Source of the DNA: Carpediemonas membranifera BICM
Lineage: Eukaryota; Protista; Fornicata
Length of the DNA stretch: 64,000 nucleotides
Assembly (NCBI GenBank): GCA_019828565.1
Contig: JAHDYR010000005.1
Location: 1,189,842-1,253,841, forward strand
Reading direction: 5' to 3'
The notes under the pieces: model-generated
Databases searched by the model: none
What the model was told of the DNA's origin: nothing
Seen by the model: only the letters and a program-made list of their open reading frames with translations
Part shown: piece by piece, positions 13,479-61,559 of the stretch
Position numbering within the stretch: position 1 is the stretch's first letter
Layout: each line of letters opens with the position of its first letter
Translations under genes and position numbers: made by a program

Positions 13479-14658
13479 ATGGTGTTGCCTACTCCCATAG
13501 AGCAGCCCAGTATCCCCTTGGCCGGTCTTTCCGCCGACTCCTGGCGGGCCGCCAAGCGCTCATTCAGAAAGTTCCAGGTATACTACCCCGAGGCCAAGAT
13601 CTCCCTGTTTTTAGACGACGACCTCTACAACGCCCTCGAGCTCCAGTTCGATGCCGATCTGGACACGCTCACTGACGAAGAGGTGGGTCACCTCATCGAG
13701 CGTCTGATCGCTCCAAGAGACCTACTCTCACTCAAGGAACGTCTCGATAAGATTGTCTGTGCCGTGGACGCAACGCACAAGAAGTCTAGAATCGTTCTAG
13801 TCCGAGACTATATCCACCGCTTCAACGAGGTTTTTAACCTGCACACCGTACTACAACGTGATGACGACAACGACTCCGACTCCGAATCCGACAGCAGCTC
13901 CGACAGCGACTACGAAGAAGCAGCCATCGTCCCTGTAAGGCACGTCGACGGTGATGCCCCTGATGACGACGATCCCGATCCTCAATCCCCCTCAGGCTTT
14001 CTGAAAGACTGTATGAGGATCTTCACCGACAACCTACGTCCGAAGCCCTTCAAGGAGGTCATGAAGTTCAAGAAGGCTGAACGCAAGCCCACCGCCATGG
14101 ATGATCTCCAGCGCCTTGCCCTCCGCGTTGCCAAACGCGACGACAACGCCCGCGAGGAGGCTCTCCGCTACGGCTACTACGCCCAGAGCTCCACTCCAGC
14201 CAACAATAACGGCAACACCGGGCCCTCGGGTGACAACACCCGGCAGCCGGCACGCCCCTGTCGCCACTGTCAGGGCAACCACTTCGACCGAGATTGCCCC
14301 TCTCGTCAGTCACGTGGTCCCCAGACACAGGTCAACTTCGCGAAAAGCCGCGGAGCCGACGCCCTTAAGGTGCCCGCCTCATGCGGCACGTCCCACTTCC
14401 AAGCCATCATTGACACGGGCGCAGCAATCTCATGCACGAGTGATCGTTACGCAAAGATATGGCAGCTCCCCCGCACCAGCATCGACCCCGTGTCGGTCAC
14501 TCTCGCCGACGGCAGCTCAATCACCGTCAATCAGGCCGTAGATGCGCCCATCCTCTTCACAGGCCTCGCCGGATTCCCTGTCGCTGTCTCCGTCCGTTTC
14601 ATCATCCTCCCTGGCCGCCAGTGTCCTCTAATCGGGTGCGACACTCTCAGAGACCTCG
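13479..14658 (+). CDS. Gypsy-2 gag (CCHC knuckle) plus protease, interrupted
   Basis: CRHCQGNHFDRDC, IIDTGA, LIGCD. Confidence 0.9.
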
Positions 14659-15333
14659 AAAGAAAGAAAGAAATTTAACGTATCCTGTACACCTGTGTAA
14701 ATCAGGGAATTACCAGTTTGCACCACCCCATGTCCCCGGGAACGCCTTAGCGTGTTGACTTCCCTTCGTGAGCGAGCCTGATACTACGTTGGGGGCGTTA
14801 GCACCATCACCGTCAGGGTCCAGCTGGTAAGGCTGGGTAGTCCCTTGCATGTTGACCTATCAACTGGCTGGCCCGATACCCCCAAAGTCGGGATAACCCA
14901 GGTCTTACTCTTGGGGGTCCTTCGGGCCCCCGTTCTGCCTGGCACCCGCAAGGCCTTGCCCTGCACACCCGCCACCGGGGCCTTCTGCTCGGTTTCCCCC
15001 TACAGGGCTCCTCTCAGGGATATGTTCTCCATACCATTCGACCCAGTTTGCAATTTTTCAGGCACCCGCCGAAGCGGTTTCGGGCTTGGCGTTTGCCGTA
15101 CCACGCAATTGGGCCAGTTATGAAACCCACCGATCATCGCTGGGTAGCTATATGATTCACGGCTGCGTTCGGGCTCTTCCACACTTTCCGTTCCGGCATG
15201 GATCCCCTCTTCAAGGATTTGTTCCCTATAGGGCTTCTTCCTAGCTTCCGGCTGGTTCCAAGTTTTGGGTGCCGGGCCGTTCGGCGCAGCTCTGATTTGG
15301 TCCAGGTGCCGCCCAGGTGGTATTGTTGCCATG

Positions 15334-15385
15334 CAGTCAATTCTGGTACCTTTTCTGGAACAAATGGTTCCAGAATTGGTTCCAG
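15334..15385 (+). repeat. Left TIR (52 bp, CAGTCAATTCTGG..)
   Basis: Perfect inverted match; internal TTCTGG(A/T)AC subrepeats. Confidence 0.93.
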
Positions 15386-16624
15386 AATGCCAGAAAAAAT
15401 GGCATTTGCAAGAAAAACTAAACGCGTTCAAACAATTTAGCGACGCCTTGCCACGGGGTGTAAAGCAATATGCAACTAATACTGGGCCCAAGGAACGTTG
15501 ATACGTACTGCTCTCATGAACTCACTCACTTTTCAGCAGAGCTCGACCAAAAACTAACAGAGGCTTGCCCGAGGTGTGCTTAAGCCAGCTCCAACTCTCT
15601 CTCAGTCTGTGACAGCTCCCCCAAAAAATTATTCTTGCTCAAAGTTGAGGTTTTCGGGAAATACTGCCAAAAAGTTTGCTTCTGCTCAAGAACGGGGGAT
15701 GCGCGTTGGATACCGACACCGTTACGTAACAGTTTAACATTCATTATAACAGCGCTAGCCTCCAGATTTCCTTGCGCACGCCTTTATCTGGAGAAAATAG
15801 CACAAACTTTCGCAAGCAAACGCAAATCGATGAAAAATATGTTTCATGTCCAACGGGCTAAAACTGAGCACAGTGTTATTCATCCTTCTATTCTACTAGT
15901 TTATCACTTCAAAAGGATCTGAACTTCAGTATTGATGGTGTTATAGGCACTGGTTCGGTTCGAGTCAAAACTGACTAAACTGTGACGACGGCTAGGTGTT
16001 GAAACATGCCATACTCACTCGTAGCGTGGCGCTTAATAGTGCCAGAATTGCTTCACTGCCACAAATCAATGGAGGTTCATGTTTGTGCATAAAGTACACA
16101 AACATGAGAAGACACGAATTCGTCACTGAATTAGAGACGATGCGCATAAGAATCAAAGATTTGGTTCAAATAGAGGAATACTACCTCTTTGCAGACGATA
16201 TCGCGAAGGAATACCTTGATGTTGCGTCCATATACCTGATGAAGGCAATCCTACGTTCTCAGTGAGGCAACTAGCAAACATGAACCGTATCAAGAGACAA
16301 ATATTGAAGCACTCCCCGTCCACATCATGTTTGATAAATTTTCTGGTGTCATTCTGCTGTTAATATCAGACAAGCAAACAACGTAGTGATGCGGAGAGAC
16401 CGCGTGGCAGGGCATGATGCACCTGTTGATACCAGGAGCGCTGTCTGGTATGATGATTAATTGCAACGAACGCGATCACCGGAAATTACCTTACCTTACC
16501 TTACCTGCAGGTACCATGGGTGTTCGTTTTCGTCTCTAAACGCCATCGTGTAAGAGCATAAAGAGCATTTTCTGTTTACTGTGCCGTTGGGGGATTGATG
16601 GCGCTGGCGTAGGGGTGCTGTGTA

Positions 16625-17619
16625 GGCGCCAGGGATGAGGCGCCAGAGATGAGGCGCCATGAATGAGGCGCCAGGATGAGGCGCCAGAGATGAGGCGCCA
16701 GGGATGAGGCGCCAGGATGAGGCGCCAGGATGAGGCGCCAGGGATGAGGCGCCAGGGATGAGGCGCCAGAGATGAGGCGCCATGAATGAGGCGCCAGGAT
16801 GAGGCGCCAGGGATGAGGCGCCAGGATGAGGCGCCAGAGATGAGGCGCCAGGGATGAGGCGCCAGGATGAGGCGCCAGGGATGAGGCGCCAGAGATGAGG
16901 CGCCATGAATGAGGCGCCAGAGATGAGGCGCCAGGGATGAGGCGCCAGGATGAGGCGCCAGAGATGAGGCGCCAGGGATGAGGCGCCAGGATGAGGCGCC
17001 AGGGATGAGGCGCCAGAGATGAGGCGCCATGAATGAGGCGCCAGAGATGAGGCGCCAGGGATGAGGCGCCAGGATGAGGGCGCCAGAGATGAGGGCGCCA
17101 GGAATGAGGCGCCAGGATGAGGCGCCAGGGATGAGGCGCCAGAGATGAGGCGCCAGGGATGAGGCGCCAGGAATGAGGCGCCAGGATGAGGCGCCAGGAT
17201 GAGGCGCCAGGGATGAGGCGCCAGGATGAGGCGCCAGGATGAGGGCGCCAGAGATGAGGCGCCAGGATGAGGCGCCAGGATGAGGGCGCCAGAGATGAGG
17301 CGCCAGGGATGAGACGCCAGAGATGAGGCGCCAGGGATGAGGCGCCAGGAATGAGGCGCCAGGATGAGGCGCCAGGATGAGGGCGCCAGAGATGAGGCGC
17401 CAGGGATGAGACGCCAGGGATGAGGCGCCAGGGATGAGGCGCCAGGGATGAGGCGCCAGAGATGAGGCGCCAGGGATGAGGCGCCAGGATGAGGCGCCAG
17501 GGATGAGGCGCCAGGATGAGGCGCCAGAGATGAGGCGCCAGGAATGAGGCGCCAGAGATGAGGCGCCAGGGATGAGGCGCCAGGGATGAGGCGCCAGGGA
17601 TGAGGCGCCAGGAATGAGG
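16625..17619. repeat. Minisatellite A1, 13-15-bp unit GGCGCCAGGGATGA
   Basis: About 70 tandem units visible. Confidence 0.97.
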
Positions 17620-17984
17620 AGTACAGTATTAGAACCCCGAAAACACCATAATACCAACACCAATGAGCTTCATCAAAGAAAAGATATGCTCACTGGCGCC
17701 GGTTATGGCGTTTTCGGGGTTCGTCGACCATTCTGCTCCCAAATCTGCACCTGTATTTTCGTGAGCATGCCCGGGAGCTGGGCCTGACGAGTGATACCGC
17801 AGGGACCACGCTCAGATGCTCAGGCTCTGCCAGGCGGCACTCGTCAGAATTCTGCACGAAAAAATTCAGACGACGAATGATGGGCAAGGGCCGCGAAAAC
17901 GCTGAAGTACCAGCGCAAGTAGAGCGGTTTGCAATAAAATAGCTTACTTGCGCTGGTGCTGGCGTTTTCGGGGCCCTGAATTGC

Positions 17985-19010
17985 CTCCGGGCGCTCTCCC
18001 GGCGCTCTATCCCCCGGGCGCTCTCCCGGGCTTCTCTCTCCAGGGCTCTTCTCCCGGGCTTCTCTCTCCCGAGTTCTTCTCCCCCGGGCGCTCTCCCGCC
18101 GCTCTATCCCCCGGGCTCTTCTCCCCCGGGCGCTCTCTCGGGCTTCTCTCTCCAGGGCTCTTCTCCCGGGCTTCTCTCTCCCGCGCTCTTCTCCCCCGGG
18201 CGCTCTCCCAGGCTTCTCTCTCCCGGGCTCCTCTCTCCCGGGCGCTCTCCCGGGCTTCTCTCTCCCGGGCTCTTCTCCCCCGGGCGCTCTCCGCCGCTCT
18301 ATCCCCCGGGCTCTTCTCCCCCGGGCGCTCTCCCGGGCTTCTCTCTCCCGCGCTCTTCTCCCCCGGGCGCTCTCCCGGGCTCCTCTCTCCCGGGCTCCTC
18401 TCTCCCGGGCGCTCTCCCAGGCTTCTCTCTCCCGGGCTCCTCTCTCCCGGGCGCTCTCCCGGGCTTCTCTCTCCCGGGCTCTTCTCCCCCGGGCGCTCTC
18501 CCGGGCTTCTCTCTCCCGCGCTCTTCTCCCCCGGGCGCTCTCCCGGGCTCCTCTCTCCCGGGCTCCTCTCTCCCGGGCTTCTCTCTCCCGGGCTCTTCTC
18601 CCCCGGGCGCTCTCCCGGGCTTCTCTCTCCCGCGCTCTTCTCCCCCGGGCGCTCTCCCGGGCTCCTCTCTCCCGGGCTCCTCTCTCCCGGGCGCTCTCCC
18701 AGACTTCTCTCTCCCGGGCGCTCTCCCGGGCTTCTCTCTCCCGCGCTCTTCTCCCCCGGGCGCTCTCCCAGGCTTCTCTCTCCCGGGCTCCTCTCTCCCG
18801 GGCGCTCTCCCGGGCTTCTCTCTCCCGGGCTCTTCTCCCCCGGGCGCTCTCCCGGGCTCCTCTCTCCCGCGCTCTTCTCCCCCGGGCGCTCTCCCGGGCT
18901 CCTCTCTCCCGCGCTCTTCTCCCCCGGGCTCCTCTCCCCTGGGCTCTTCTCCCCCGGGCTCTATCCTCCGGGGCTCCTGTCCCCAGCGCTGTTTCCCAGG
19001 CGCTCTGCTC
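17985..19010. repeat. Minisatellite B1, 12/15-bp units CTCTCCCGGG(CG/CT)-type
   Basis: Tandem pyrimidine-rich units. Confidence 0.97.
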
Positions 19011-19473
19011 TCTCCAGCGTCCTCACTCGTAAATGTACGTTGCTGTCTTGTCTGCTTGATCTGATTTCATTTAGTGTGCACTTTAGGGGATAGTTTCATT
19101 GCAACGCCAAAATGGCGAGTTCAGGTTGTAGCAATGATCTGATGCGCGGAATGTACTAGAAAACATTGCAATTACAACGCAAAGCAGCGAAAAGCGGAGA
19201 AATCAACATCAATAACAACATCAACACCAAAAGAACAGTATCCCAAAGAATTGTGGGCGTTGCTGCGCCAAAGAGCAATAAATGACCACAAAGCATTCGC
19301 TTATGCACAATTAGCTGCCAGAAAGAACACTACACCGTTACTTTGGATCATCCCAGTTCGCCGGAGATGACGCAGGTCCAGAACGCTGCCTTGGAGGGCT
19401 GGTGAAGCGGTTGTGTAGCGCTTACTCGCCTGGCCTTTGGGGCTCTCTCAACATCCTTCCAGACTACTGCATT

Positions 19474-19887
19474 GTCATTCACCGGAGGAGCAGGCCAGAG
19501 TCACTTGCCATCTGGCGCATCATGAGGAGATATTGGAATGTGTTGATGTGTTTATTGACTAAATGAGCTGGAATTAGGCGGGTTTGATGTTGCTTACATG
19601 TTCTGTGGCATGCCTGATGTCCAAAGATGTATTTTGGCACAGTGATGTTGTTTAGTGTGCTCATAGCTGACCGCATAGTTATCTGACGTCAATGTGTCGT
19701 GTTGATGGCAACAAATCGATGGTAGCTCGCACGTTTGAGGTAGTTGCTTGTTGCATCGATGCAACGCACTTTAAGGATTAACCACCTGCACCCCATAGCC
19801 GTTTCCTAAGGCCAGATACGGTCCTCTGTAGCGTATATACACGCGTGAATTGGGACTAGATGGGACTAGATGCAGTGTTGTGGCATG
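19474..19887 (+). repeat. 414-bp direct repeat S1 (S2 at 24520-24933), bounding the YR-like/OTU-like cassette
   Basis: Near-identical copies. Confidence 0.93.
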
Positions 19888-20020
19888 CCCGGTCTAGCTG
19901 AATCCACAAATGTGGATCGGCTCGGGCTGCCGTATAGGTGGCCTGCTCTGGACTTATGGCTGGAGATACAGTTGGCAGGTAGTTGACTCGTACATGCTCA
20001 TATGGACAACCGACGGCCAT

Positions 20021-21415
20021 TTACTTCTGGTGCTTTTCCTGCTCTCTCTTCTCCATCAGGTCGTCATACTCGGCCCTCGTCAGCCTCACAGTTGTCATTC
20101 CGGCATCACGGATGTGCTGAAAGGCCTCATCGGGCAGCTTCGGCATCCCGTCCTCGCTGTCGCTGCTGCTGCCCAAGTCTGACTCGCTCTCGTGATAGCG
20201 GCGAAGGCGAATGCGTCTGCTGGGCACCCTGGTCTTCATTGAGTCATAGAGCGGAGCGAGCCCACTTCCATTGGCCCCGCTACGGACACCCTCATCGGTA
20301 TCTCTCTCAGACATATCACACTCAACCTGTTGTGACTGAACAAATGACAGGTTGTCGACGAGGCTATCCTCGGCATCGCTGTCTGAACTCTCCTCATCCT
20401 CCCACTCTCCTTCCAGCATCTCCAACCCGGCCTCATCGTCAGACTCGCCCTCCACCGCGGTCTCCGGCATCTCTGCCTCGCCAGCTGTCTCGTCAAACAG
20501 CGCCTCATCGTCAGACTCCCCCTCCCCCGTGTCGTCCCCCTCGGGCTTACGCTGGTCGTGGAGCTGGACCATCCTAATCCTGAGCTTGTTGTAAAGCCAG
20601 TCATCGAGCATCGGCGGCACCAGGTCGGCAGAGCTTCGGATCTCCGGGTTGAGATCGAGGATCGTTGGGCGCCGCGTGGTCGTTAAGTGACTGGACGCCA
20701 ACTGGCGCCTGAACTGCTCATCGGTCAGGCTGATGCGCTTGTCCTTAATGACCTTACGAACCTTGGTCGGATCCCTGGGCCTGCCAGTCCGTCTTTGTGT
20801 CTCAATCACCCGCTTCTTGAGCTGATTGAGATCGACATGCACAGTGGGCGCATAGCGAAGCTGGTTGACACTGAGCCCGACCTGCTTGAGAGCCTCCGAG
20901 AAGGTGCTCGGCGCTACATGAGACAGTGCGGATGAGGCCTTGGAGAATACTATCCAGGCAGCGAGCTCTTCAGGAAGCTGAAGAGCTCGCTCGCTCACAT
21001 CAATATCGCGGGCTGATGTGGCAGTCATGCCTGTGTGGCTGATGATAAGAGCCAGCGCATTGTAGGGGAAGACTAGTCGGACAATAGCTTCCAATTCGAC
21101 AGGCTCAAACTGCCCAAGCGGCTTGACATTGTCTCTGCCGGAGTTTCGGAATGAGTTGACGGCACTGAGAGTGACAGCAGCGGTTGCCTTGCTCAATGAT
21201 GCAGCAAAACCGGGCACAAGCGATCTAACCTCCTCGGACCGGATCACGGAGAGCGCTTCGTCCTCGGTACTCCCTCGCTCACGTTGTACGAATTGAACGA
21301 ACCGCGAAAGGTTGTTTGCGGCCGCTTTCCGGGAAGATTTCTTGCTGATGGTGCACAACCAAGCATTCTTCACGTCTTGCATGCTTGTTTCCATCTCCCG
21401 CGGGCTTCCTTCCAT
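20021..21415 (-). CDS. Degenerate tyrosine-recombinase-like protein with acidic C-terminal tail
   Basis: Core-binding-like N-terminus (NNLSRFVQF..ATAAVTLSAVNSF); LIISHTGMT at the TGxR position; SVNQLR at the HxLR position; catalytic R and H appear lost. Confidence 0.5.
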   Translation of the reverse strand: MEGSPREMETSMQDVKNAWLCTISKKSSRKAAANNLSRFVQFVQRERGSTEDEALSVIRSEEVRSLVPGFAASLSKATAAVTLSAVNSFRNSGRDNVKPLGQFEPVELEAIVRLVFPYNALALIISHTGMTATSARDIDVSERALQLPEELAAWIVFSKASSALSHVAPSTFSEALKQVGLSVNQLRYAPTVHVDLNQLKKRVIETQRRTGRPRDPTKVRKVIKDKRISLTDEQFRRQLASSHLTTTRRPTILDLNPEIRSSADLVPPMLDDWLYNKLRIRMVQLHDQRKPEGDDTGEGESDDEALFDETAGEAEMPETAVEGESDDEAGLEMLEGEWEDEESSDSDAEDSLVDNLSFVQSQQVECDMSERDTDEGVRSGANGSGLAPLYDSMKTRVPSRRIRLRRYHESESDLGSSSDSEDGMPKLPDEAFQHIRDAGMTTVRLTRAEYDDLMEKREQEKHQK

Positions 21416-21416
21416 C

Positions 21417-21746
21417 GATATACGGATTTCAGACTTTCGTCATGCACAAAAATTCGAATCTCTCCAAATGCCCAAAACAGTGGTCAAACCGTGTTCAGGG
21501 GTACAAAAGAGTGCCATAGGCACGTTCTTGCATTCAAAAATATTCTAGAGGTCGTTCATAAATTCTCAGATGGCCAACAGTACGAAAGTCTGAAATCCAT
21601 TTATCATGAGACCCGACAAATTTGAAATCCATTTATCGGGTGGATACATCACTGTAGAGGGTATTCATGGATATAGGTGCCTTTTCGGTGCCGAGGGGAG
21701 TCAAAATTTGAGGTCGTGCAGGCAGAAAGTCTGAAATCCGTATATC
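21417..21746. promoter_or_regulatory. 330-bp segment bounded by perfect 22-bp inverted repeats, abutting the YR-like start codon
   Basis: GATATACGGATTTCAGACTTTC (21417-21438) vs GAAAGTCTGAAATCCGTATATC (21725-21746); partial copies at 21582-21598 and about 21623. Confidence 0.55.
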
Positions 21747-22651
21747 TCATCACTGCTTATAGATCCTGGCAGACAACGGCCTCTTGGCAACGCCTGAGGT
21801 GTAAGGATTCGCTTGCCTCTGTGTTGTCGCATCAGCTTCGCTGAAAACGGGGGAACTGACCCGCGCATTCGCGCACTTTATGCTCGCAACGAGACCGAAA
21901 TGACGAACTGAAGAATAGGAAGAATACTGGCGGCTTTAACGATACAGGCATGCACTTATCACTAAGAAACATCAGTATGCGGGCGCAGAGCATCATTAAA
22001 GCAACAATTATCTCTAAACAACATCAAGTACCAAAAGTCCATCAGGACGAAACGATATGAACTATAAATGGAGCACAGATCAGTACAGATGATTTGAGAG
22101 TACCAGGCATGGCCAGAATACCGTAATTATCGTCCGTTGATCCACGTGACCTCCATCTTGGTCGGTATCCAGAGAACGCCCGTCAGACGCTTGCAACGGA
22201 ACATTTAGGGGGTGCATCCTGAATGGGGCCAGATTTGAGGGACCCTTGGTCTGACATGCCATGACCGAGTACTCTAGGGGCCTCCACAGTGCGTCCCGAG
22301 GTACGTTAGAGCACCACAGACCTTCCCCCAAAAGCTGACTCCTGGACCCCTTGGCCGGAGTTCGCCCGAAGCGTGCCTCGGCTTGAACTAACGGCAAGAG
22401 AGCATAAAATCAGCCCTTTCGAACCGTGTTTTATGCTCTGCTGCCGTTATAGAATTATTCAAAGGGCCCTCTCTTTGCGCTTTTTTTCTGGTTCGTGGGA
22501 CGAAGTAGGGACGGACAAAAAAAGCACATACGGAAGGTATTGGAGGTACTGAGGCCGCCTAGGTACATAGTTGCCGTGTGGATGGTTTCAGTTTATTACT
22601 TTTGGCACTCTATGTCCATTTTTTTATGCTCTCTTGCTGATAGTGCCGAAC

Positions 22652-24404
22652 ATGGACTTGCTAAAGTGGATTGAGAGCGCTAGCAAGGAACAGTACGATG
22701 CGATATTGGCTGCATACACCAAGGCAACCACCAATCATGCCAAATGTGCTGTCCTTCGCGCGGTTTTGCTGGATGAACGGAAACTGCTCGATCTAGTCAT
22801 CAGGAAGCGTTTGTAGTCATAGCAATGCTTATATAGGAATCAACCTGAACCATATCACCACGAAATTCCGCCTCACGAAGGACGAGAAGGAGGAGCTCCA
22901 TGATAAGTTGAAGAAGCAGTTTATGGCACTCGCCGGACCAAGAAGTTCCAAGAAGCTCGGCGCGCTGGCGAAGTGGGTTGACGACAACCAGGCTGATATC
23001 GTGTATAGCCAGGAGAAGCGCAAGGCGCGTAAGGCCATTATTGAGGCCATTGACGCCGAGGAGAAGGACAAGGGCAAGGGCAAAGCCGAGAGCGCTAAGA
23101 AAGAACCCGTCGACGATGAGAGTGGCGTGGACAGTGGTGAAGAGAGCGGCGTCGACGATTCTGAGTTGTGCGACAGTGAGAGTGAGGTGGACTTTGACAA
23201 CGAGTCCGACGATGAGATTAGAGAACGCGCGATCAAGCGCCGGCGCGAGAGAAAGATCGCCCAGAAGCTCAAGGAGTGGGAGGACAATAACGCTCGCAAC
23301 TACGTCCTGTGGCATAGAGTCCAGAAGGAGGTGCACGGCGAGCTTCGCATTCGCGCCTCTCGAGAGTCAGCTTCGGTTGCTGGGGACAACCACGTCGACG
23401 TCCAGTTCGACAGATACCTTCGCGTATCCAAGCTGCTCGAAATGAAGGACTGGATTCACAAAGACCTCCCATCTCTTCCGATGGAGGCACGAGTGCTCCA
23501 TCACAAGGCGCAGAAGAGAGTACTCGAGCTGGAGGAGACCGTCACGAGGCTGCTGCAAGACGTGGGGTACGCAGCTGACATCTCCATGGGTGCCAGCCCG
23601 ACACCCGCGCCGTTTCGCCGCGACCTACCCCAGTCGGGCACACACCAAGCACGAACGAGTACCCCCCGCCGTACGGGGAAGAGCGACACAATCCACATGA
23701 AGCGCAAGGCCCTCATGACAATCCCTCAGAAGATCGCTGATGTCGATAGCAACTCAGAGGAGTCAGACGAGGAGGAGATGGTGACAGAGGAGAAGAAGCG
23801 CGAGGCACACGAGGAGGTGGTGACAGAGGAGAGGAAGGGTGAGTCACATGAGGAGGACGTGACCAAATGCGACGCCTGCATCCAGACTGAGCCGGAGACT
23901 CAGACTCGCATCACCTCTGAGGCCGCGGTGCAGACGTGCATCAACGCGGAGGCTCTCACGGCTGGCTGTACCGCGATTCATGTCAAGAGTGACGGCAACT
24001 GCGTTGCATATTGTCTCCAAGCCATTGAGTTGGGTGGCAGAGTTGATGGCGACTTCGAAAGGTGGCAGCGTGGCCTCTGCCAGTCAGTGAAGGCCAAGTA
24101 CTGGTCTAAGAAGAATTTCACGGAGCGTAGCCTGACAGATCCGGACTCCGGCTACTATAACTCGAACGCCATCCGAGTCTGGGCGAGGAAACAGAAGCGG
24201 AACATCCTTGTTGTCCAGTCATACGACGGATACAACGGCATGCAAGGCATCTCCGCCATCTTATACCTGTTTGATGGCACCACCATGCTTGCACCCGATG
24301 CAGACTTGTGGGGGTTGACAGATAATTTCGCTATTGTCATCGAAGGCGATCCGGCTCACGCCACGCTGTACCAGAAGAAGTGCGAGGTCGTTGAGATTGA
24401 ATAA
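22652..24404 (+). CDS. Charged/coiled protein with C-terminal OTU-like cysteine protease; 28-nt intron at 22809-22836
   Basis: VKSDGNCVAYCL..GDPAHATL; removing GTTTG..TATAG joins ORFs 22652 and 22908 in frame. Confidence 0.7.
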
Positions 24405-24519
24405 AGATTTGGATATGCCCGTGTAGCCAGCGGTTCATGACCTGCAGCAGACATTTGGACGTACAGCGGGATACCACATCAATTAGGTCACTTGCGGGCT
24501 AAGATTGTCGTTGTCGATC

Positions 24520-24933
24520 GTCATTCACCGGAGGAGCAGGCCAGAGTCACTTGCCATCTGGCGCATCATGAGGAGATATTGGAATGTGATGATGTGTTTA
24601 TTGACTAAATGAGCTGGAATTAGGCGGGTTTGATGTTGCTTACATGTTCTGTGGCATGCCTGATGTCCAAAGATGTATTTTGGCACAGTGATGTTGTTTA
24701 GTGTGCTCATTGCTGACCGCATAGTTATCTGACGTCAATGTGTCGTGTTGATGGCAACAAATCGATGGTAGCTCGCACGTTTGAGGTAGTTGCTTGTTGC
24801 ATCGATGCAACGCACTTTAAGGATTAACCACCTGCACCCCATAGCCGTTTCCTAAGGCCAGATACGGTCCTCTGTAGCGTATATACACGCGTGAATTGGG
24901 ACTAGATGGGACTAGATGCAGTGTTGTGGCATG
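24520..24933 (+). repeat. Direct repeat S2
   Basis: Matches 19474-19887. Confidence 0.93.
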
Positions 24934-25001
24934 ATCTGCAAGATCGACCAGCCCCTGGATCACTTGGGCCTGCCTCCGTGCCCGGCCTGTTGCGATCAAT
25001 G

Positions 25002-26798
25002 ATGGTGATTACTTGCAACGAACGCGATCACCGGAAATTACCTTACCTTACCTTACCTGCAGGTACCATGGGTGTTCGTTTTCGTCTCCAAACGCCATGG
25101 TGTAAGAGCATAAAGTGCATTTTCTGTTTACTGTGCCGTTGGGGATTGATGGCGCTGGCGTAGGGGTGCTGTGTGGGCGCCAGTGATGACGGCGCCAGGG
25201 ATGAGACGCCAGGGATGAGGGAGCCAAGATGAGGGAGCCAAGATGAGGGCGCCAGGGATGAGGGCGCCAGGATGAGGCGCCAGGGATGAGGGCGCCAGGA
25301 TGAGGGCGCCAGGGATGAGACGCCAGGGATGAGGCGCCAGGGATGAGGCGCCAGGGATGAGGCGCCAGGGATGAGGCGCCAGGGATGAGGCGCCAGGATG
25401 AGGCGCCAGGGATGAGGCGCCAGGGATGAGGCGCCAGGGATGAGGCGCCAGGGATGAGGCGCCAGGGATGAGGCGCCAGGGATGAGGCGCCAGGGATGAG
25501 GCGCCAGGGATGAGGCGCCAGGGATGAGGCGCCAGGGATGAGGCGCCAGGGATGAGGCGCCAGGGATGAGGCGCCAGGGATGAGGCGCCAGGGATGAGCG
25601 CCAGGGATGAGGCGCCAGGGATGAGGCGCCAGGGATGAGGCGCCAGGGATGAGGCGCCAGGATGAGGCGCCAGGGATGAGGCGCCAGGGATGAGGCGCCA
25701 GGGATGAGACGCCAGGGATGAGGGCGCCAGGATGAGGCGCCAGGGATGAGGCGCCAGGGATGAGGGCGCCAGGATGAGGCGCCAGGGATGAGGCGCCAGG
25801 AATGAGGAGTACAGTATTAGAACCCCGAAAACACCATAATACCAACACCAATGAGCTTCATCAAAGAAAAGATATGCTCACTGGCGCCGGTTATGGCGTT
25901 TTCGGGGTTCGTCGACCATTCTGCTCCCAAATCTGCACCTGTATTTTCGTGAGCATGCCCGGGAGCTGGGCCAGACGAGTGGTGCCACAGGGACTAAGCT
26001 CCGCTGCTCAGCCTCTGCCAGGCGACACTCGTCTGAATTCTGCACGAAAAAATTCAGACGACGAATGATGGGCAAAGGGCCGCGAAAACGCTGAAGTACC
26101 AGCGCAAGTAGAGCGGTTTGCAATAAAATAGCTTACTTGCGCTGGTGCTGGCGTTTTCGGGGCCCTGAATTGCCCCGGGCGCTCTCCCGGGCTCCTCTCT
26201 CCCGCGCTCTTCTCCCCCGGGCTCCTCTCCCCTGGGCTCCTCTCTCCCGGGCTCCTCTCTCCCGCGCTCTTCTCCCCCGGGCTCTATCCTCCGGGGCTCC
26301 TGTCCCCAGCGCTCTTCTCCCCCGGGCTCTATCCTCCGGGGCTCCTGTCCCCAGCGCTGTTTCCCAGGCGCTCTGCTCTCTCCAGCGTCCTCACTCGTAA
26401 ATGTACGTTGCTGTCTTGTCTGCTTGATCTGATTTCATTTAGTGTGCACTTTAGGGGATAGTTTCATTGCAACGCCAAAATGGCGAGTTCAGGTTGTAGC
26501 AATGATCTGATGCGCGGAATGTACTAGAAAACATTGCAATTACAACGCAAAGCAGCGAAAAGCGGAGAAATCAACATCAATAACAACATCAACACCAAAA
26601 GAACAGTATCCCAAAGAATTGTGGGCGTTGCTGCGCCAAAGAGCAATAAATGACCACAAAGCATTCGCTTATGCACAATTAGCTGCCAGAAAGAACACTA
26701 CACCGTTACTTTGGATCATTCCAGTTCGCCGGAGATGACGCAGGTCCAGAACGCTGCCTTGGAGGGCTGGTGAAGCGGTAGTGTAGCGCTTACTCGCC
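25002..26798 (+). repeat. Long direct repeat copy 2 (VNTR-A2 about 25176-25808, VNTR-B2 about 26173-26385)
   Basis: Matches 16450-19430 with shorter arrays. Confidence 0.9.
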
Positions 26799-27072
26799 AA
26801 GCGGGCGATGGTCTCGACGGGACGGTTGACGGTCTCAAGGTGGCCCTGCTCTTCGACGTACCAGGCGGACATGCCGATGACGGAGCGGCGCTGACCCTGG
26901 CGGACGTTATCCTCGCCCTGGGTGAAGCTGTTCTTGCCGCAGTACACGTCGATACCGATGGTGAGGCAGGGCTGTAGCATGGAGGCCGAGAAACCATAAA
27001 CTGCACGGATCCACAAACGTGGATTGGCCTGAACGACAGCGCTGATGCCCAGACAGTCAGATATACATTCAT

Positions 27073-27896
27073 TTATTCCTGTCTCGCTCTCTTGCCTGTC
27101 GGATCGCGACGCTTGACCCACTCAAATGCCTCATCTGTGAGGTAGACAGACATGCCGCTGTCCTTATCCTTCCGAGTCGAAACCTTCTGTTTCGAAACCT
27201 TCCGAATCAAGGTTCGGCAAGGGTCTTTGGGTCTCGTTGTTGACATGCGACGGCAAGCCCACTCTGAGGTCTCGCATGAGCCCCCCGCACACGATGCAAT
27301 GCCCTGACAGGACAAGCGGGGGGTCATTTGTATCGGCCATATCTGTCTTAAGCTGCTCCACCTGGCTAGGAGTCAGGTTGCGGGCCTTGATCGTACCCCC
27401 GGGTCTTGCCTGTGTCTTCGGGCCTGGGCCTCGGCTCATCCTGGTCTCTGACGTCCGAAGTCGTCATCGTTGCCTGCTCCAAAGTGGTGGGCTCCGGCTG
27501 AGACCTGACGCCTGGCAGCCTGCGCATGGTCTTACGGCCGCCGCTACGCAGCCTCTCAATATCCTTCTCAAGACTGTTGACCTTCGTCGTCAGCGCATGA
27601 TGTTCACTTGTCGCGAACGAGCGACACTGGCGACTTAAGTAGCGCGATGAACGTCTTGCCTGTGTCTTCTGGCCTGGAAGAATAGCCCAAATGACCTCAG
27701 ATGCAGCAAGTTCCATACATTCGATGCTTTCTGGAGTAAAATAGAAGCAAGCTGCCATAATCGCTGCAACAATCTTCCGCAAAAGGTCTCTGTCACGTGT
27801 ATTATCAGCCATCGTACTGTCACACCATTTTGAACTCATCAAATATTGAGCGTACAATATCACGTAAAGGGGGGCGTTTTGGAGGAAATGACGCAC
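27073..27896 (-). pseudogene. Frameshifted gene ending in the shared CxxC-WAC-C-VYLT module
   Basis: CIVCGG/SCETSEWACRRMSTTRPKDPC..VYLTDEAFEW, homologous to the C-terminus of 53659-54588. Confidence 0.6.
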
Positions 27897-28261
27897 AATA
27901 CCGTTGCTTTAGCACTAGTTTGATATTGAAGGTTCACTTTCAAGACTTTTTGCGTGGTCACCTTTGGAAGGTGACAGTGCAACACCCGAAATTTTGTCTA
28001 TACACGTCATATACAAGGTCTAATGCATCTTTGCCAACCACTTTTAGCGTTTGTATGTGTCAGACGATCGAGTTCTGAAGAGCGACTTTGGCCAAGTCAT
28101 GCGACCTTATCCTGCACTGACGATACGAAAACCGATCATAAATATTTATTGAGACATCTGCATGCAGTATTAATGTGTCCAGAGGTGAAGCTAGGTCTAT
28201 AGAGTACGCACACCAACTTTAGAACTGATCCGCGAGATTCGATCAAAATCGATCAAAGAAA

Positions 28262-28313
28262 CTGGAACCAATTCTGGAACCATTTGTTCCAGAAAAGGTA
28301 CCAGAATTGACTG
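28262..28313 (-). repeat. Right TIR (52 bp)
   Basis: Reverse complement of 15334-15385. Confidence 0.93.
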
Positions 28314-28667
28314 CATGGCCTTATGGTTACCCTCCTGTTTGGCTGCTGCGCCCCGATACCTCGCACGTACGTGTATACATGTGCATACGTGCCCCGCCCT
28401 ATGGCTCTGGGTTGTTTCTTATACGTGTGAAGAGTGTGCCGGTTCTGCCGGCTGAATGTTGTCTACGTTCCCAGTATGGGTGAGCGTTTGTGTGTTAGCG
28501 AGATTAGTGTTCGGGGTTGAGTCCCCCTTCCGCGGCTGGGTGCTACCGGGATACGTGGGGCTTGCGTCACCCGCTGATCCCAGGAGCGCTCCGCTTCGGT
28601 TGAGGCGGGGGGTTGGGTCCCAGTTTGACCCTGGTCCCTGAGGTCATAGGATTCTGGGATGGTGTAC

Positions 28668-34713: not shown

Positions 34714-34740
34714 TGTGATGTCTCACTCTCAGAGACCTCG

Positions 34741-39367: not shown

Positions 39368-40234
39368 TTATCTCTTCTTATCCTTCTCTAATAAGGCTCT
39401 GAACGGGGCTACGGACGTGCTGTAGTCCAGGCGAAGCACGTCTTCCACATAACGGATCAATGAGTTCTGGTCAGCCCATGTGCCCTTCGCCGCAACAACC
39501 GGGATAGGGATACCCATCAGAACCAGGTCAGCCGCGCTCCCGCGGCGCAGACCGTGCAGTCGAGCCTGCGTGGAGATGATGCCCTTCACCTGGTCCTCAA
39601 TGACTGAGTAGGGGTGCGACCAGAGAGGGTCTTCGGCCACCGCGCCTGCATCTATCCTATTGACTAGGACCTCAGATAGCCAGTGAGCCGGGTCTAGCTC
39701 CCCGTCGACTCTCGGGACGAGCTTCTCAACGACCACTCGCCGGGTCTTAGTGCCGTGGATGGAGATTCTTAGCCCGCGGCGCGCGCTCTCCGCTCTAACG
39801 TCACCAACATGCAGGGCATAGATCTCTCCTGGCCTGGAGGTCGTGGCGTAGGTGGTCAGTGCAAAGGCGAAAGCCTCCTTCCAAAGGTCGTCGTCTCGAG
39901 ACTGAGGGTGGGCAGCCCGAAGCCTGTCAACCAGAGTGTGCGCGCGAATCGGGAGAGCAGGCCCTCTAAGCTTCCCAAGAGCGTTCCTTGCCTGCTCTTT
40001 GATGACTGCGTCGGCGTCCAGCGGTGGTTCCCATGATGACACCCGGCCGAAGAAGCGACGGATTAGGCTCCACTTCGAGGTGATTGTATCCTTGGTGACC
40101 CTCGAGGCTTGGTCCTTGGCCCATGCTCTTATGACTTCGATGCTGCTAGTGTCAGGTGGAAGGGCACCCCAGAAACCCGAGAACTGTTGGAGCACACCCG
40201 CGACGTGGCGCTTGTCTACGAATCCACTTAACAT
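39368..40234 (-). CDS. Tyrosine recombinase of element X
   Basis: TTSRPGEI, HGLRRG, GTW, RY: full R-H-R-W-Y set. Confidence 0.92.
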   Translation of the reverse strand: MLSGFVDKRHVAGVLQQFSGFWGALPPDTSSIEVIRAWAKDQASRVTKDTITSKWSLIRRFFGRVSSWEPPLDADAVIKEQARNALGKLRGPALPIRAHTLVDRLRAAHPQSRDDDLWKEAFAFALTTYATTSRPGEIYALHVGDVRAESARRGLRISIHGTKTRRVVVEKLVPRVDGELDPAHWLSEVLVNRIDAGAVAEDPLWSHPYSVIEDQVKGIISTQARLHGLRRGSAADLVLMGIPIPVVAAKGTWADQNSLIRYVEDVLRLDYSTSVAPFRALLEKDKKR

Positions 40235-40448
40235 GTCACCCTCGAGGGAGATGGTGAAGATGTCACTCCCACAAACAGGGCCGCCAATCGGTATGTGCCG
40301 TCCGCCTGCAGGGGGGTGATCGCTGATAGGTCCGCGTCCTCCGCTTTGACTCTGAAGAACATGCGGTGCGGAGTCAGCTCTCTCAGCGCAACTGCTGTGC
40401 CGGGGCGAAGAGATTGGAACATTTACATAAACTGCGGACGTGGATGCC

Positions 40449-42153
40449 TTATGACACTGCCGTCGGCGATCTGCAGTCGGACACTAGCAGGACGAGGGCA
40501 CTTGGTAGGGATCTCGGCTGTGTGGTCCTTGCAATGTGGAGGTGGCACAGCTTTGCATATACTGCTGATAGGAGCGCGAAGGGTGTCACTGCTAGCCACC
40601 TTCCTGTCGACCAGTCCATGTCTATGAACCTGCTGTCGTCGACCGTCGACGGGCTGTGTTCTACTCGAGCTCCAAGCCACTCGGAGGGCCAGATCTCTTT
40701 CTGCATGGGACCCCACTCGGCTGTGATCCTGTCGATGATCCGACGAGGCGCTGAGAGCGTTTCGGACCTCGACAATGCGTCGGCTTGGACGTTCAAGTGA
40801 CCAGAGACGTGAAGGAGCCTTATGCTGATGGCCCTTTCGCTCAGTGTGGGTAGCAGGTCCCGTATGACTGAGTCTACAAACTGCGGAGCCTTGGTTGAGC
40901 CTTGCTTGTTCCACCAGCTGACTGCTGCCACCGAGTCGGAGTAGATGGTGACCTCCGCGTCTGTCAACGGCTCTGCTAGGATCAGTCTCACTGCTTGTTC
41001 CACTGCTCGGAACTCGAGCAATGTGATGTGCTCGTCCACCGGGGCCGGCCTGGTGAAGGTGAAGGGTTGACGGCCCGGGATTGTGATCACTCCGCCGAGT
41101 CCTGAGTGAGAGGCGTCTGTCATCGCTGTGATGTGGAGCGTCGGAGACAGACCCCACAGGTGAAGCAGCTCTTGGAAGGACCTTATCGGAGATGGCCGTG
41201 ATAAGCGGCGCTCCCATTGGATCAGTGCTTCTCTCGCTTCGCCGGATATGAGTGTGCGGTAGCGGTCCTTCAGTTGGGCTCTCTGGAGGGGTCTGATAGC
41301 GGCTCGGCCCTCCGGCCAAATGATGGCTGCAAAGCCGAGATTGCCCAACAACCGCTGCATGCTGTGTCGTGGCCCCCGATGCCAAGGCCTCCCTGACTCG
41401 TGAGAGGTACTTCTGCCGCTTGCTGTCCTGCAGAGCGATCCCCCGCCGGCCAGAGTCCATAACGAAGCCAAGGAAGTCGGTCTGCTGCGTGGGTGAGAGC
41501 TGCGATTTCTTCCTGTTGATGACCAGGCCGAGGTTCTCTAGGAGCTGTAGTATGCCGGGCATCGCAGCGGTCAGTGTCTTCTTGTCCCCGGACAGGAGCC
41601 AGTCGTCGAGATAGATGGTCAAGTTGATGCCTGGGAACATCCGTGCTACGATCTGCGCTGCTGTCAGCATCACCCTTTGGAAGAAGAATGGCGCTGGGCC
41701 CCAGCCGAAGGGTAGGACGTTGAAGGCATAGGGTCTCCCGTCGACCACGAAACCCAGCAGCGGGCTGTCCGAGGCCCTGACCCCTAACTGGTAGTAGCCC
41801 TTGACTAGGTCCAAGCGTGCCATGTAGTCTCCTTCGCGAAGCTGGGCCATCGCTTGCTTGACTCCCTTCAGCCGAAAGGTTCGATGTTCCGTTGACACTG
41901 CGTTCAATGCCCTTAGGTCGTGGATCAGACGCGTCTCTGGTGGCGTCTTCGGCACAGTGAAGATAGGTGAGATCAAGCTGGGAGACCGGCATGGGCCTGC
42001 CGCGCCCAGGCTCAGGAGGGTTTTCAGGTGGTCGCGGAATGCCTTGCGGTCCTTGGCGCGAGTTGGTGGTAGGCGCGGATGACGAGGGTGCGCTCTTAGG
42101 GATATCGGGACGCCCTCGCGTAGCCACGTAACCACCTCTGATGGCGCGCCCAA
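40449..42153 (-). CDS. RT-RNase H-degenerate methyltransferase of element X (frameshift near 41360)
   Basis: DLVKGYYQ, LPFGW, YLDDWL; TDAS, HITLLEF, YSDS, NVQADALSR. Confidence 0.9.
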
Positions 42154-42347
42154 GTGCCTCCATAGGCGCCACTGCCTGTTGATGCAGGGAAATGGTGGAA
42201 CTGACGGGGGAGGAGGTGCTGTGGACGGGGGAGGAGAAGGCGTCGGTGACAGGGGAGGAGATTGAGGAGTAGTGGGATTTGTGGTTGGATGAGGAGTTAG
42301 GACCTGTGGACCGGGGCGAGGATCCTTGATGGGTGGTTTCTTTTGAC

Positions 42348-42923
42348 TTAGTTTGAGTTCTTCGTGCCGGCGCGCTTCGGCTTCTTCCCGTGAAAACCCC
42401 GGTTGCCGCCGTCATGTCCGGTGCCGGGCTTGGTGTTCTTCTCGGTCAGGCGGGGGATCTTGGACAGGGTGCGGAGGACGAGAGTCTCGATCTCCGTCTC
42501 GTTCATCTCGTGGCGCTCGGCAAGGGCGGCCATGCCCGCGGTGGAGACAGCAGAGGCGGCTAGGTAGCCGTAGCGGTCCTTCACCCATAGGACTCGGTGA
42601 CGGAGGAAGATGCGAGCGAGTACGGCGAAGCCACTGATTCGATTGAACTTGAAGCTGCGGTAGATCTCCTCGAGGAACTCCGCCTCTTCGCGCATAGTGG
42701 ATGAAGCAGGACGCTTCCAAGTCATGGTGGTCTCTTGCCGAAGCAGATCTACTGTCTCTCGGACGTTGCCGCCGGCAGTAAATGCGTCTTGAAGCTGTTG
42801 AACGGTGGCTTTGAGCTCTGCGATCTCTTGGGCGGCGTCTCCCATCTGTTTCAGTTCGCTCTTGAACAACTGAACCGCCCTTATGAGACGCACGATCCCG
42901 TCTTTGAGATCGTATCGAATCAT
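42348..42923 (-). CDS. gag-like ORF of element X
   Basis: First ORF of the element; coiled coil; homologous to gags Y and Z. Confidence 0.75.
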   Translation of the reverse strand: MIRYDLKDGIVRLIRAVQLFKSELKQMGDAAQEIAELKATVQQLQDAFTAGGNVRETVDLLRQETTMTWKRPASSTMREEAEFLEEIYRSFKFNRISGFAVLARIFLRHRVLWVKDRYGYLAASAVSTAGMAALAERHEMNETEIETLVLRTLSKIPRLTEKNTKPGTGHDGGNRGFHGKKPKRAGTKNSN

Positions 42924-42970
42924 CCTCGACCTCTCGCGCCGAAGTTTTGGCTCCGCTGGCCTTGCCAACA

Positions 42971-43043
42971 GCTTCCATAGCTCAGTCGGTAGAGCGGCAG
43001 ACTGTTAATCTGTAGGTCGTTGGTTCGAGCCCAACTGGGAGCG
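42971..43043 (+). tRNA. tRNA-Asn (GTT)
   Basis: Cloverleaf: GCTTCCA/TGGGAGC acceptor, GCTC/GAGC D stem, GCAGA-CTGTTAA-TCTGT anticodon arm, GTTGG-TTCGAGC-CCAAC T arm; no CCA; TTTT downstream. Confidence 0.96.
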
Positions 43044-43049
43044 CAATTT

Positions 43050-48136: not shown

Positions 48137-49278
48137 ACAACTACCTTTTCAACCTTGAAGACGGTGGATTACTCATTGACTTCGGCTCTGCCATCAAAAT
48201 AGAGGCTCCTACTGGGATTAACAGGTATATGGGACAAGACATGAGAGGGACACCTGGTTTTATCCCCCCCGAGCTTCGTGCCGACGAGCTCAGTCGGAAA
48301 TCGAAGCATTGTACAGTAGCTATGCGGGAACCACAGAATTTGAACCCCTTCCAGGCTTCCAGGAACACCACAACCAGAAACACCAACATGCACACAGTTG
48401 ATGCGGCATACGACATCTTTTCCTGCGGCGTTATCGTCCTCATGATGGCATTGAGACTGGATAAGTCTCCATTTCGATCTGTGCGAGTGGATGGTGGCAA
48501 ACCAAGTAACCCAGACGAGCATATTGGCGCTCTATATAACATGGCGTACTTCTATGGCCGCGGAATCAAGATACACAACAAGAAGAAGAATGCAGCCCGT
48601 GGTTTGATGATCAATCCGACTCTCTGCACGAGAGGAAGCCCTCCGACACCGTATAGGAGCCTTTACGACCTTGCAATGGGGATGCTCAGCTATAATCCGG
48701 AGGATAGACCCACAGCTTTGATGTGCGCTGAACATCTCAACGATATCGCCGCCCTAGCAGTAACGTTCGCATCTACACCACTGATGATCAACGAACAGGT
48801 GACAATCTCTCAGGAAACGCTCGCTGCCGCCAAACTCACCGTTGAAGCACTTCGAGATACCCGATTTGCTGGCCGATGCATTGCATGTGGCATGTCGGTT
48901 CACGATAGTCGAGCACTAACCTGCAAGACACACCACCAAGATTAGCTACTAAACGCTGAAAGGCGGATCAAAAAGAAGCATCAAAATTCAACTGCCCAGC
49001 GGAGCAGGTTCGTCAAGTGGCCGGAGATGCCGCTTCCAGTCAAGCGAATGCCCTACAGCTCACCATTTCCGTCCCCGCAGCTGTATCCATCCCCCACTCC
49101 GCCTTCAACGACAGCCCCCGCCACGCCTCTTGCAAGTCCGCCTCCATCTCCTGTCCGCAGTTTACCGCCCAGTATCGAATCACCTCACTACCATGATTCA
49201 ATTGATGAGCACATTTACCCAAGCTCTATTTCTTCTACCGGCGGTGATGGTGGATCAAAGCACTTGACTACGCGGTAA
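48137..49278 (+). pseudogene. Protein kinase C-lobe plus CxxC module and Pro-rich tail; N-lobe cut off by Gypsy-3; in-frame TAG at 48943
   Basis: NYL..LIDFG..GTPGFIPPE..DIFSCGV..YNPEDRPTA; FAGRCIACG. Confidence 0.8.
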
Positions 49279-54588: not shown

Positions 54589-54891
54589 ATCGGTTTCTTC
54601 AGAACGAAATTCTAAAAGAAATGTTCGGTGGTAAGTGAGATCACTGCGCATCTAGAGACAGCAGAAACGTAACCTACAGCCCATATTGATGTGGGCTGGT
54701 CTTATCCGGATGTCCAAGGACCTTGATTCGCTCTGGGGTAGTCCCCCCATGACCGTCAGGCACGCGAACCGCATCCTGCACGAAGCGGGGATGCAGAGTC
54801 TGAAAAGACCCATCTCTCTGTCCGATCTGGATACCCCTGACGATAGATGGAATGAATGAAGCTGTAAACATATCCATTGACTCTGAATCTT

Positions 54892-57897: not shown

Positions 57898-58280
57898 CGA
57901 TTCCAGCGCTCAGTTCGGTGGCGACTTGTTCTCGTTCTTAAACTGCTCAATGAGAAAGGATGACAGCAGAAACGACGTCCTGGAGGACGTCCTGGTGTTA
58001 AGGAGGGGGGTGTTCTTGAGCACGTGATAGTGGACGGCCTTGTTGGTGGGCGCGGCCCATGAGAAGCACCAGCGCAAGTAAAGCATTTTGCAATATATTA
58101 CTTGCGTTTGCGCTGTCGTTCTCCGGGCGCACTTCCCCGGCCGCTCTTTGACACGGACATTGCCGTGGGGCCTCCTCCCTCGTAGCTGTTTCCTCCCCGG
58201 GTTCTGTAAATGGTGTGTTTTGATTCATCTGTCCCTTTGTTTGTCTCGGCGTTGAACTTTGAAAGCAATAAATGGCTACG

Positions 58281-61543: not shown

Positions 61544-61559
61544 CGTTTCTGAGGAGTAA

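Follow-up and report, generated by a model that had tools for sequence, protein, structure and literature searches.

A transposase-less 13-kb inverted-repeat element of Carpediemonas membranifera with a captured piece of a host Piwi gene, a possible silencing decoy

Organisation of the locus

The window analysed here is a stretch of 64,000 nucleotides from Carpediemonas membranifera BICM (GCA_019828565.1, contig JAHDYR010000005.1, positions 1,189,842 to 1,253,841 of the forward strand; coordinates below are those of the window), and it is a nest of retroelements. Inserted in one of these is a 13-kb element bounded by terminal inverted repeats (TIRs), whose cargo comprises a gene derived from a tyrosine recombinase (YR), a gene with an OTU-like domain, a cysteine-rich "Cys-module" gene, arrays of variable-number tandem repeats (VNTRs) and a piece of a host Piwi gene. 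The left TIR (15334-15385, + strand) and the right TIR (28262-28313, - strand) are identical at 52/52 bases after reverse complementation, and similarity ends there; these ends make up 52 bases of a longer inverted repeat (15328-15385 and 28262-28319). The chance expectation for a TIR pair of such quality is ~1e-22 in 64 kb. On either side stands CATG (15330-15333 and 28314-28317, both + strand), probably a 4-bp target site duplication (TSD). An earlier reading of the letters alone (hereafter the original prediction) had described perfect 52-bp TIRs flanked by CATG, and this is borne out.

Because the CATG flanks are palindromic, several readings of the ends and the TSD are compatible with the junctions: C with 4 bp, GC with 2 bp, TG with none, AG with 2 bp and GT with 4 bp. 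A second, related element that begins at 52721, which we call the sister element, helps to choose among them. Its junction (52720|52721) interrupts a Gypsy reverse transcriptase (RT) at the xMDD motif, and since Tyr precedes xDD in 3/3 of the remaining RT motifs found in the window, the first base of the sister is C. The sister thus starts CTGTCAA and the 13-kb element, the one complete copy, CAGTCAA. For both, the sister junction speaks in favour of C[A/T]GTCAA as the end and of a 4-bp duplication at CATR, the same preference that the original prediction had drawn from the sister end. Short sub-repeats are present in the ends of both elements; those in the TIR (TTCTGG/CCAGAA) are likely transposase-binding motifs.

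The host of the insertion is a young long interspersed nuclear element (LINE; 14659-34723, - strand) with a perfect 17-bp TSD (14642-14658 and 34724-34740), itself lying inside the protease region of a Gypsy element. The LINE carries an intact endonuclease-reverse transcriptase open reading frame (ORF2, 1119 aa), and the 13-kb element interrupts its 3' untranslated region 354 bp past the stop codon and 675 bp short of the 3' end. As each element sits within the previous one, the order of insertion was Gypsy, then LINE, then TIR element, so that the claim of an insertion later than the LINE stands; the last insertion looks recent. The 3' untranslated region of the LINE is ~1 kb long and ends in a short (TTTC)n-type tail.

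Between the TIRs the order is A-B-[YR-like gene, OTU-like gene]-B'-A'-Piwi piece-Cys gene, a set of nested direct repeats. Module A (16450-19430, + strand) consists of a head, a 14-bp VNTR of ~72 copies (16624-17619, + strand), a spacer with a hairpin (17888-17977, + strand), a C/T-rich 15-bp VNTR of ~68 copies (18021-18978, + strand) and a tail. Module A' (25002-26798, + strand) repeats this arrangement with shorter VNTRs (25176-25807 and 26182-26365) and a second hairpin copy at about 26077-26166; outside the VNTRs the two modules share ~96-99.6% identity, and each VNTR is present twice in the element, in agreement with the VNTR modules first described there. Module B (19471-19887, + strand) and B' (24517-24933, + strand) are 417-bp direct repeats, identical at 414 of 417 bases, that bracket the two-gene cassette.

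The hairpin spans ~90 nt with a near-continuous stem of ~40 bp. As RNA of the + strand it folds with -69.5 kcal/mol (z -10.3, equalled by 0/200 shuffles), and on the - strand with -58.1 kcal/mol (z -8.0). Its core palindrome occurs three times in the window (A, A' and the sister) versus 0 in 100 shuffles. An Rfam search of the element, hairpin included, gave 0 matches, and a bacterial promoter scan was uninformative.

Captured pieces of a host Piwi gene

Abutting the tail of module A' is a fragment of a host Piwi/Argonaute gene (26801-26986, - strand). Its 186 bp correspond to amino acids 562-623 of an 823-aa host protein, with 56/62 amino acids identical. When the piece was searched among longer proteins, two of three candidates matched, namely a family of chimeric 135-aa ORFs and the 823-aa protein, and the latter is the only full-length match (E 3.9e-26). 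The identity of the host protein is supported by Pfam Piwi (E 7e-38) and ArgoN domains and by top matches in the PDB that belong to the Piwi clade; a PDB search with the fragment alone found nothing. Judged by these comparisons, the element carries part of a silencing gene of its host at high identity. The fragment resembles the opening strands of an RNase H fold, and its IGIDVY stretch was also considered as what is left of the first catalytic strand in a truncated transposase of the hAT/RuvC-like kind, a candidate that was rejected on the match to the host Piwi.

Counting that of the window, 12 contig records contain the chimeric ORF, in seven distinct sequences, and the junction between the Piwi piece and the module A tail is the same in all of them. 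In 2/7 sequences another residue replaces the catalytic Asp, so the piece is probably not kept as a protein. Its GC content at third codon positions is 0.89, versus 0.57-0.72 in five ORFs of the element and the sister and 0.64 in the LINE ORF; a value above all six fits capture from the host by the element. At four other loci the Piwi-piece ORF lies within one or two accessions of YR-like or OTU genes: KAG9393511/12/13 (OTU, YR and Piwi piece), 9392769/70 (Piwi piece and YR), and 9390918/20 and 9390801/03 (Piwi piece and OTU in both). The ORFs P0041, P0046 and P0048 at other loci start with MDNRR, five residues that are also read here on the + strand at 20002-20016, just past the stop of the YR-like gene; this suggests that the modules of other copies are inverted or have been reshuffled.

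The sister element holds a different piece of the same gene (58009-58056, - strand), covering amino acids 745-760 with 13/16 identical and lying 7 bp from a hairpin copy. Its best 12-residue stretch has 11/12 identical residues, versus at most 8/12 in 20 shuffles, and its local score is 69 versus 22-31 in 12 shuffles. By eye both pieces seemed to continue further in degenerate form, but a frameshift-aware alignment did not bear this out. Both pieces are in sense on the - strand, so that + strand transcripts of the hairpin module would contain them in antisense.

A recombinase-derived protein and other cargo genes

The first gene of the cassette (20021-21415, - strand) encodes a 464-aa YR-derived protein that comprises an integrase core-binding domain, a truncated catalytic core without a conserved Tyr, and an acidic tail. 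A structure model built from 20 family sequences (N-domain blocks ~90, mean predicted local distance difference test score, pLDDT, 67.7; a single-sequence model with pLDDT 39 was discarded) matched integrase core-binding domains with Z 8.2-8.3 and a root-mean-square deviation of 2.4-3.1 A over 81-92 residues, and all of the top 16 structure rows were of YR-family or Ndc10-type. The next domain, the C-terminal part, aligned to the lambda integrase core with Z 5.6 over residues 177-318 only, an alignment that ends before what we take to be the nucleophile of that enzyme, Y342. Foldseek lists were topped by the same family, with E-values all above 0.001, the top viral matches were phage integrases, and Atlas features again placed the family on top (0.94-0.96). 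A Z near 8 is modest on its own for a helical domain; Foldseek and Atlas agree with it on the family, and the tyrosine recombinase fold of the model, core-binding domain and catalytic core, can be regarded as confirmed.

The protein is very likely catalytically dead, because in the 20 aligned sequences no Tyr is conserved past position 118. Tyr188 is replaced by F or L in 9/20, and an Arg at an HxxR-like position is invariant (20/20). The dead YR of the original prediction is thus upheld by the fold and by the missing tyrosine. Ndc10, SroF and MrpR are DNA binders of the YR fold, presumably catalytically inactive, and match the core-binding domain structurally with Z 6.0-8.2; the protein differs from them in having no sequence relative outside its host, as the three matches among 1.84 billion representatives all come from C. 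membranifera. A profile comparison between the family and the two DIRS-type YRs present in the window showed no similarity (probability 0.3), which leaves an origin from DIRS elements unsupported. Directly upstream of the gene, at 21417-21746, lie a 31-bp inverted repeat (90%) and further internal copies of the motif, and the repeat is possibly an operator for the YR-like protein.

The second gene of the cassette (22652-24404, + strand) encodes a coiled, acidic protein whose C-terminal part is an OTU-like domain of the cysteine protease type (D-G-N-C...H). It consists of the ORF 22923-24404 and an upstream part that is joined to it by a 28-nt GT-AG intron (22809-22836) or by a frameshift. The family has 19 annotated host sequences, among which P0017 and P0020 lack a recognisable OTU end, and nine aligned members have the G-x-C motif and the His region in common. 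The motif, the name OTU that UniRef gives to two members of the family, and three of the four PDB matches of the family profile (EschOTU and the N-terminal domains of two viral L proteins, which we take to be OTU domains) agree with the OTU call made earlier; these matches are weak (E 0.6-1.1) and do not reach the threshold of significance, and Pfam has no OTU match in the family, so the assignment is tentative. Some members (P0011, P0012, P0015, P0018 and P0021) are mosaics, with shared N-terminal halves and at least four divergent OTU-like C-termini, and one of these proteins holds two OTU-like domains. The Cys-module gene (27073-27839, - strand; CxxC..WAC..C) is split over three frames, and its C-terminal part has 34-39% identity to a tandem 330-aa gene of the sister, which gave no usable match in an Atlas search.

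A transposase was found neither in the 13-kb element nor in the visible part of the sister. The original prediction had reported no DDE transposase, polB, packaging ATPase or capsid, and Pfam searches bear this out for the two long ORFs of the element and for all 112 stop-to-stop segments that reach 36 aa in the remaining sequence, VNTRs excluded. There is likewise no ORF of capsid size without an assignment between the TIRs, divergent capsids being able to escape Pfam, and a PHROG search with 16 proteins gave no informative match.

A sister element and dispersed cargo genes

The sister (52721-64000, + strand) starts with the CTGTCAA end and three CTAGAT sub-repeats and runs off the window, with no right end within the 64 kb. 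It contains tandem Cys-module genes, SET-like and chromodomain-like genes and an OTU-family gene, the last with 1.1 kb in common with the 13-kb element (98%). The degenerate copy of the module A hairpin lies at 58063-58128. A pair of 240-bp direct repeats (58281-61799) encloses an unknown gene, the SET-like gene and the chromodomain-like end; the SET-like protein is identical on three contigs, and the chromodomain-like end has weak matches to the chromodomains of Rhino and Oxpecker. The E-values for SET and chromodomain do not reach the threshold of significance. The 11 kb inside the window hold no YR gene, and Pfam domains of transposase, polymerase, ATPase, capsid and helicase are absent from all 101 sister segments.

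The Cys-module gene of the sister (53627-56327) is present in ~2.2 tandem copies with a period of 1232-1233 bp and 99.6% identity, and its N-terminal half gives a weak HEPN-like Pfam hint (E 0.013). Farther on, an ORF at 56546-57535 (- strand) encodes a beta-rich protein of 306-329 aa with no Pfam or PHROG match, which by eye looks like a host repeat-propeller gene.

All named homologs of the element's genes come from C. membranifera. The annotated host sequences include 21 distinct YR-like proteins beside the 19 of the OTU family, and YR-like and OTU genes are neighbours at five loci (tags 0002/0003, 4997/4998, which are KAG9393511/12, 6726/6727, 8043/8044 and 8551/8552). Accession order thus shows a YR/OTU cassette dispersed in the host genome, and the proposal of a non-autonomous member of a multicopy family holds. 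Beyond the host, the TIR pattern had 0 matches in metagenome contigs and three in viral contigs, which were 17-18 bp long, did not extend and are due to chance. The YR alignment gave 159 pattern matches in viral contigs (IMG/VR), and the OTU protein 161 in metagenome contigs and 48 in IMG/VR, none of them confirmed. Small shares of two sequencing runs contained no piece over the TIR at the left junction and are uninformative on the ends; on the gene cassette they gave five short pieces (36-377 bp), uninformative on expression. The longest of these, a 377-bp contig over the OTU gene (23390-23766) with one difference, is of low depth and comes from run X2, which is listed as a sediment metagenome.

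As to whether the family is undescribed, the string "transpos" occurs 0 times in the main text of the genome paper (PMC8516963) and 0 times in its 10 readable supplement files. Literature on Carpediemonas with terminal inverted repeats or Polintons turned up no description of it, in a search that left most subscription journals and Repbase Reports outside; under the same limits on journals, protist DNA transposons with captured Argonaute fragments as anti-silencing devices yielded only work on Drosophila. This much agrees with the suggestion of an undescribed family, a status that depends on the transposase.

Comparison with known systems

Repbase classifies non-autonomous elements by their ends and TSD (PMC4455052). 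On this basis the ends of the 13-kb element match no superfamily rule among those compared. The hAT rule is 5'-YAG-like ends and an 8-bp TSD; the CAG end is compatible with it, but whichever of eight end offsets is taken, flanking direct repeats do not exceed 4 bp. For EnSpm/CACTA (CMC) the rule is 5'-CAC termini, a 2-4 bp TSD and subterminal repeats. The element is like these in its large size (families of Chondrus are 16-20 kb; PMC6431247), in its several ORFs and subterminal repeats, and in a 5'-CA end with a probable short TSD, and unlike them in ending with CAG, or CTG in the sister, rather than CAC and in lacking a CMC transposase domain. Ginger elements have TGTNR ends, a 4-bp TSD, TIRs of 40-270 bp and, in Ginger1, an OTU domain (PMC2836005). 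The 13-kb element, with its probable 4-bp TSD, is like Ginger1 and Ginger2 in TSD and TIR length, and its OTU-like domain recalls Ginger1, but it starts with CAGTC, so that a TGT start is impossible, the OTU-like domain lacks a fused integrase, and neither the segments nor the long ORFs match rve, the Gypsy-like integrase. Crypton and Starship YRs are active and conserve R-K-H-R-H/W-Y, whereas the YR of the element has a truncated catalytic core and lacks the conserved C-terminal Tyr in 20 sequences. Polintons and Polinton-like viruses resemble the element in being TIR-bounded and multi-gene, in their size, and in having both a gene derived from a YR and a cysteine protease, the latter putative in the element (PMC10120064, PMC6431247), whereas the element has no capsid, ATPase, polB or rve and its YR lacks the conserved Tyr.

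Two other systems provide closer likenesses. Pack-type elements, including the Pack-MULEs, hold host gene fragments between TIRs and are moved by a transposase acting in trans, as we infer here. MULEs have a TSD of 8-10 bp, and the element differs from Pack-MULEs in its probable 4-bp TSD, in its length of 13 kb (Pack-MULEs are reported up to 7 kb; PMC6431247) and in carrying whole multicopy genes besides fragments. The second system is that of TART-A, which captured nxf2 (PMC7785250), and its relatives among the telomeric transposable elements (TEs) of Drosophila, in which 8/9 captures involve nxf2, piwi or aub, the captured pieces are 140-235 bp long and TE-derived antisense piRNAs map to the host gene (PMC13534243). 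The likeness lies in a 186-bp Piwi-family piece with ~90% protein identity that is amplified with the element, and in different regions of one gene residing in related element lineages; the differences are that ours is a TIR DNA element and not a LINE, belongs to a unicellular metamonad and is known here from sequence alone. On present comparison the element behaves as a non-autonomous TIR transposon of the Pack type would, and its possible counter-defence recalls that of TART; its ends assign it to none of the superfamilies compared. The captured Piwi pieces were missed by the original prediction, and they make Pack-type capture and TART/nxf2 counter-defence closer precedents than the ciliate Tec and TBE elements that it had named. 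The accessible parts of PMC11437800 are silent on whether Carpediemonas has Dicer, and as far as they go this source and PMC5751038 added nothing decisive.

Proposed mechanism and alternatives

Perfect TIRs with a TSD are the signature of DDE transposases. TIRs with sub-repeats and a short TSD thus indicate a cut-and-paste transposase of this kind, borrowed since the copy encodes none. With moderate confidence we propose that the element, which has no transposase, belongs to a multicopy family of 13-kb TIR elements and is likely moved in trans by a DDE transposase, and that it carries a Piwi decoy. First, a DDE transposase from elsewhere in the genome would bind the sub-repeats of the TIRs and produce the 4-bp TSD. 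Second, recombination between internal direct repeats (B/B', A/A' and the 240-bp pair of the sister) would shuffle the cargo cassettes; the 240-bp repeats and the 1.2-kb tandem amplification in the sister suggest that such shuffling is a trait of the family. These two steps we consider probable. Third, + strand transcripts through the module A hairpin would run into the Piwi piece in antisense, and small RNAs from the element could then lower host Piwi, or silencing the element would become costly to its host. This decoy role is plausible and, in our estimate, falls just short of an even chance. Fourth, and tentatively, the dead YR may bind DNA while the OTU-, SET- and chromodomain-like proteins help to hold the chromatin of the element in a permissive state.

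The explanation that competes best with the decoy accepts the same mobile element and holds that its Piwi pieces are neutral passengers of one Pack-type capture, without effect on silencing; they could have arrived, for example, by gap repair or through an ancestral insertion in the Piwi gene, hitchhiking with an end of the element. We regard this as possible, if somewhat unlikely. The single junction in all seven fragment sequences means that one event is enough for the main piece, that piece has drifted (6/62 amino acids) and the sister's is mostly eroded, and TIR elements such as Pack-MULEs capture host fragments routinely (PMC6431247). Against neutrality, two non-overlapping regions of Piwi are kept in two subfamilies in the same orientation to the hairpin module, and in Drosophila 8/9 captures by telomeric TEs concern piRNA-pathway genes and have been linked to targeting (PMC13534243).

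Several other points weigh against a Piwi decoy. Both pieces might be what is left of a single larger capture that was neutral. With a core of only 48 bp, the sister's piece may lack the length or the identity needed to direct silencing, piRNA targeting being almost lost at about 80% identity (PMC13534243), and the sister's hairpin copy folds poorly (z -1.0 on the + strand, -3.2 on the - strand). The identities of the Piwi pieces are measured at the amino-acid level, and the evidence for capture covers the Piwi gene. Co-location at the other loci is read from accession order, the TIRs and TSDs there being presumed, and the missing transposase and the OTU, SET and chromodomain assignments, all short of the significance threshold at E 0.04-1.8, bear on the rest of the proposal. 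In an alignment from the PDB the host Piwi has Ser at the position of a sponge Piwi His that we take to be the last catalytic residue, and it may therefore not slice.

A viral origin, in which a degenerate endogenous Polinton-like virus, virophage or transpoviron-like replicon has retained TIRs, a decayed integrase and accessory genes and is moved with the help of a complete viral copy, appears improbable to us. Large DNA viruses also have OTU- and SET-like genes, and the top viral structure matches of the YR-derived protein are phage integrases; size and TIRs are compatible too, as endogenous viral elements of protists are 15-30 kb long, are often bounded by TIRs and use YR or rve for integration (PMC10120064). 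However, capsid, ATPase, polB and helicase are absent from the 112 segments and two long ORFs of the element and the 101 segments of the sister, IMG/VR holds no relatives for the YR alignment or the OTU protein, the GC content of the element (0.55) is like that of the LINE (0.56), and the YR lacks the conserved Tyr. The TSD disagrees as well, as a Polinton-type AG end gives only a 2-bp duplication here and Polintons have one of 5-6 bp. Finally, we find it hardly credible that the element is autonomous in the manner of a Crypton or Starship, with the YR-like protein serving as its recombinase by some unusual chemistry. In favour are the clear fold (Z 8.2-8.3), an ORF that many copies keep intact and the invariant HxxR-like Arg, but no Tyr is conserved beyond 118, Tyr188 is lost in 9/20, the C-terminal part stops short of the nucleophile, the sister's 11 kb have no YR gene, and the perfect TIRs with a TSD point to DDE instead.

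Should the Piwi decoy be real, it would be the first such counter-defence in a DNA transposon and outside animals, and since the capture of silencing genes is documented in Drosophila telomeric retrotransposons, it would imply independent evolution across eukaryotes. The host is an early-diverging, culturable protist in which this is directly testable. A wider proposal is that these elements, with C[A/T]GTCAA ends and a 4-bp target CATR, form an undescribed group of giant modular cut-and-paste transposons with an anti-silencing toolkit, in which hairpin/VNTR modules would give rise to small RNAs against host Piwi from two pieces captured separately, beside exchangeable cassettes of dead recombinase, deubiquitinase, SET methyltransferase and chromodomain; this is speculative and we rate it as doubtful. 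The family exceeds the usual size range of Pack-type elements, and because its ends fit no compared superfamily rule, the autonomous partner may be a new transposase lineage. Even if the Piwi pieces are neutral, a large, recently active and apparently unreported family would stand behind dozens of genes annotated as "hypothetical".

Other features of the window

Between the two TIR elements, parts of two DIRS/Ngaro-type retroelements (39368-45034) carry apparently active tyrosine recombinases. Beside one of them, at 44294-45034, is an ORF for a Dam adenine methyltransferase (Pfam E 3e-4); a Carpediemonadida DAM clade is named in a 2026 preprint (10.64898/2026.05.21.726589). A protein-kinase-like ORF (48229-48945, + strand; Pfam E 2.5e-4) lies among the retroelements, outside both TIR elements.

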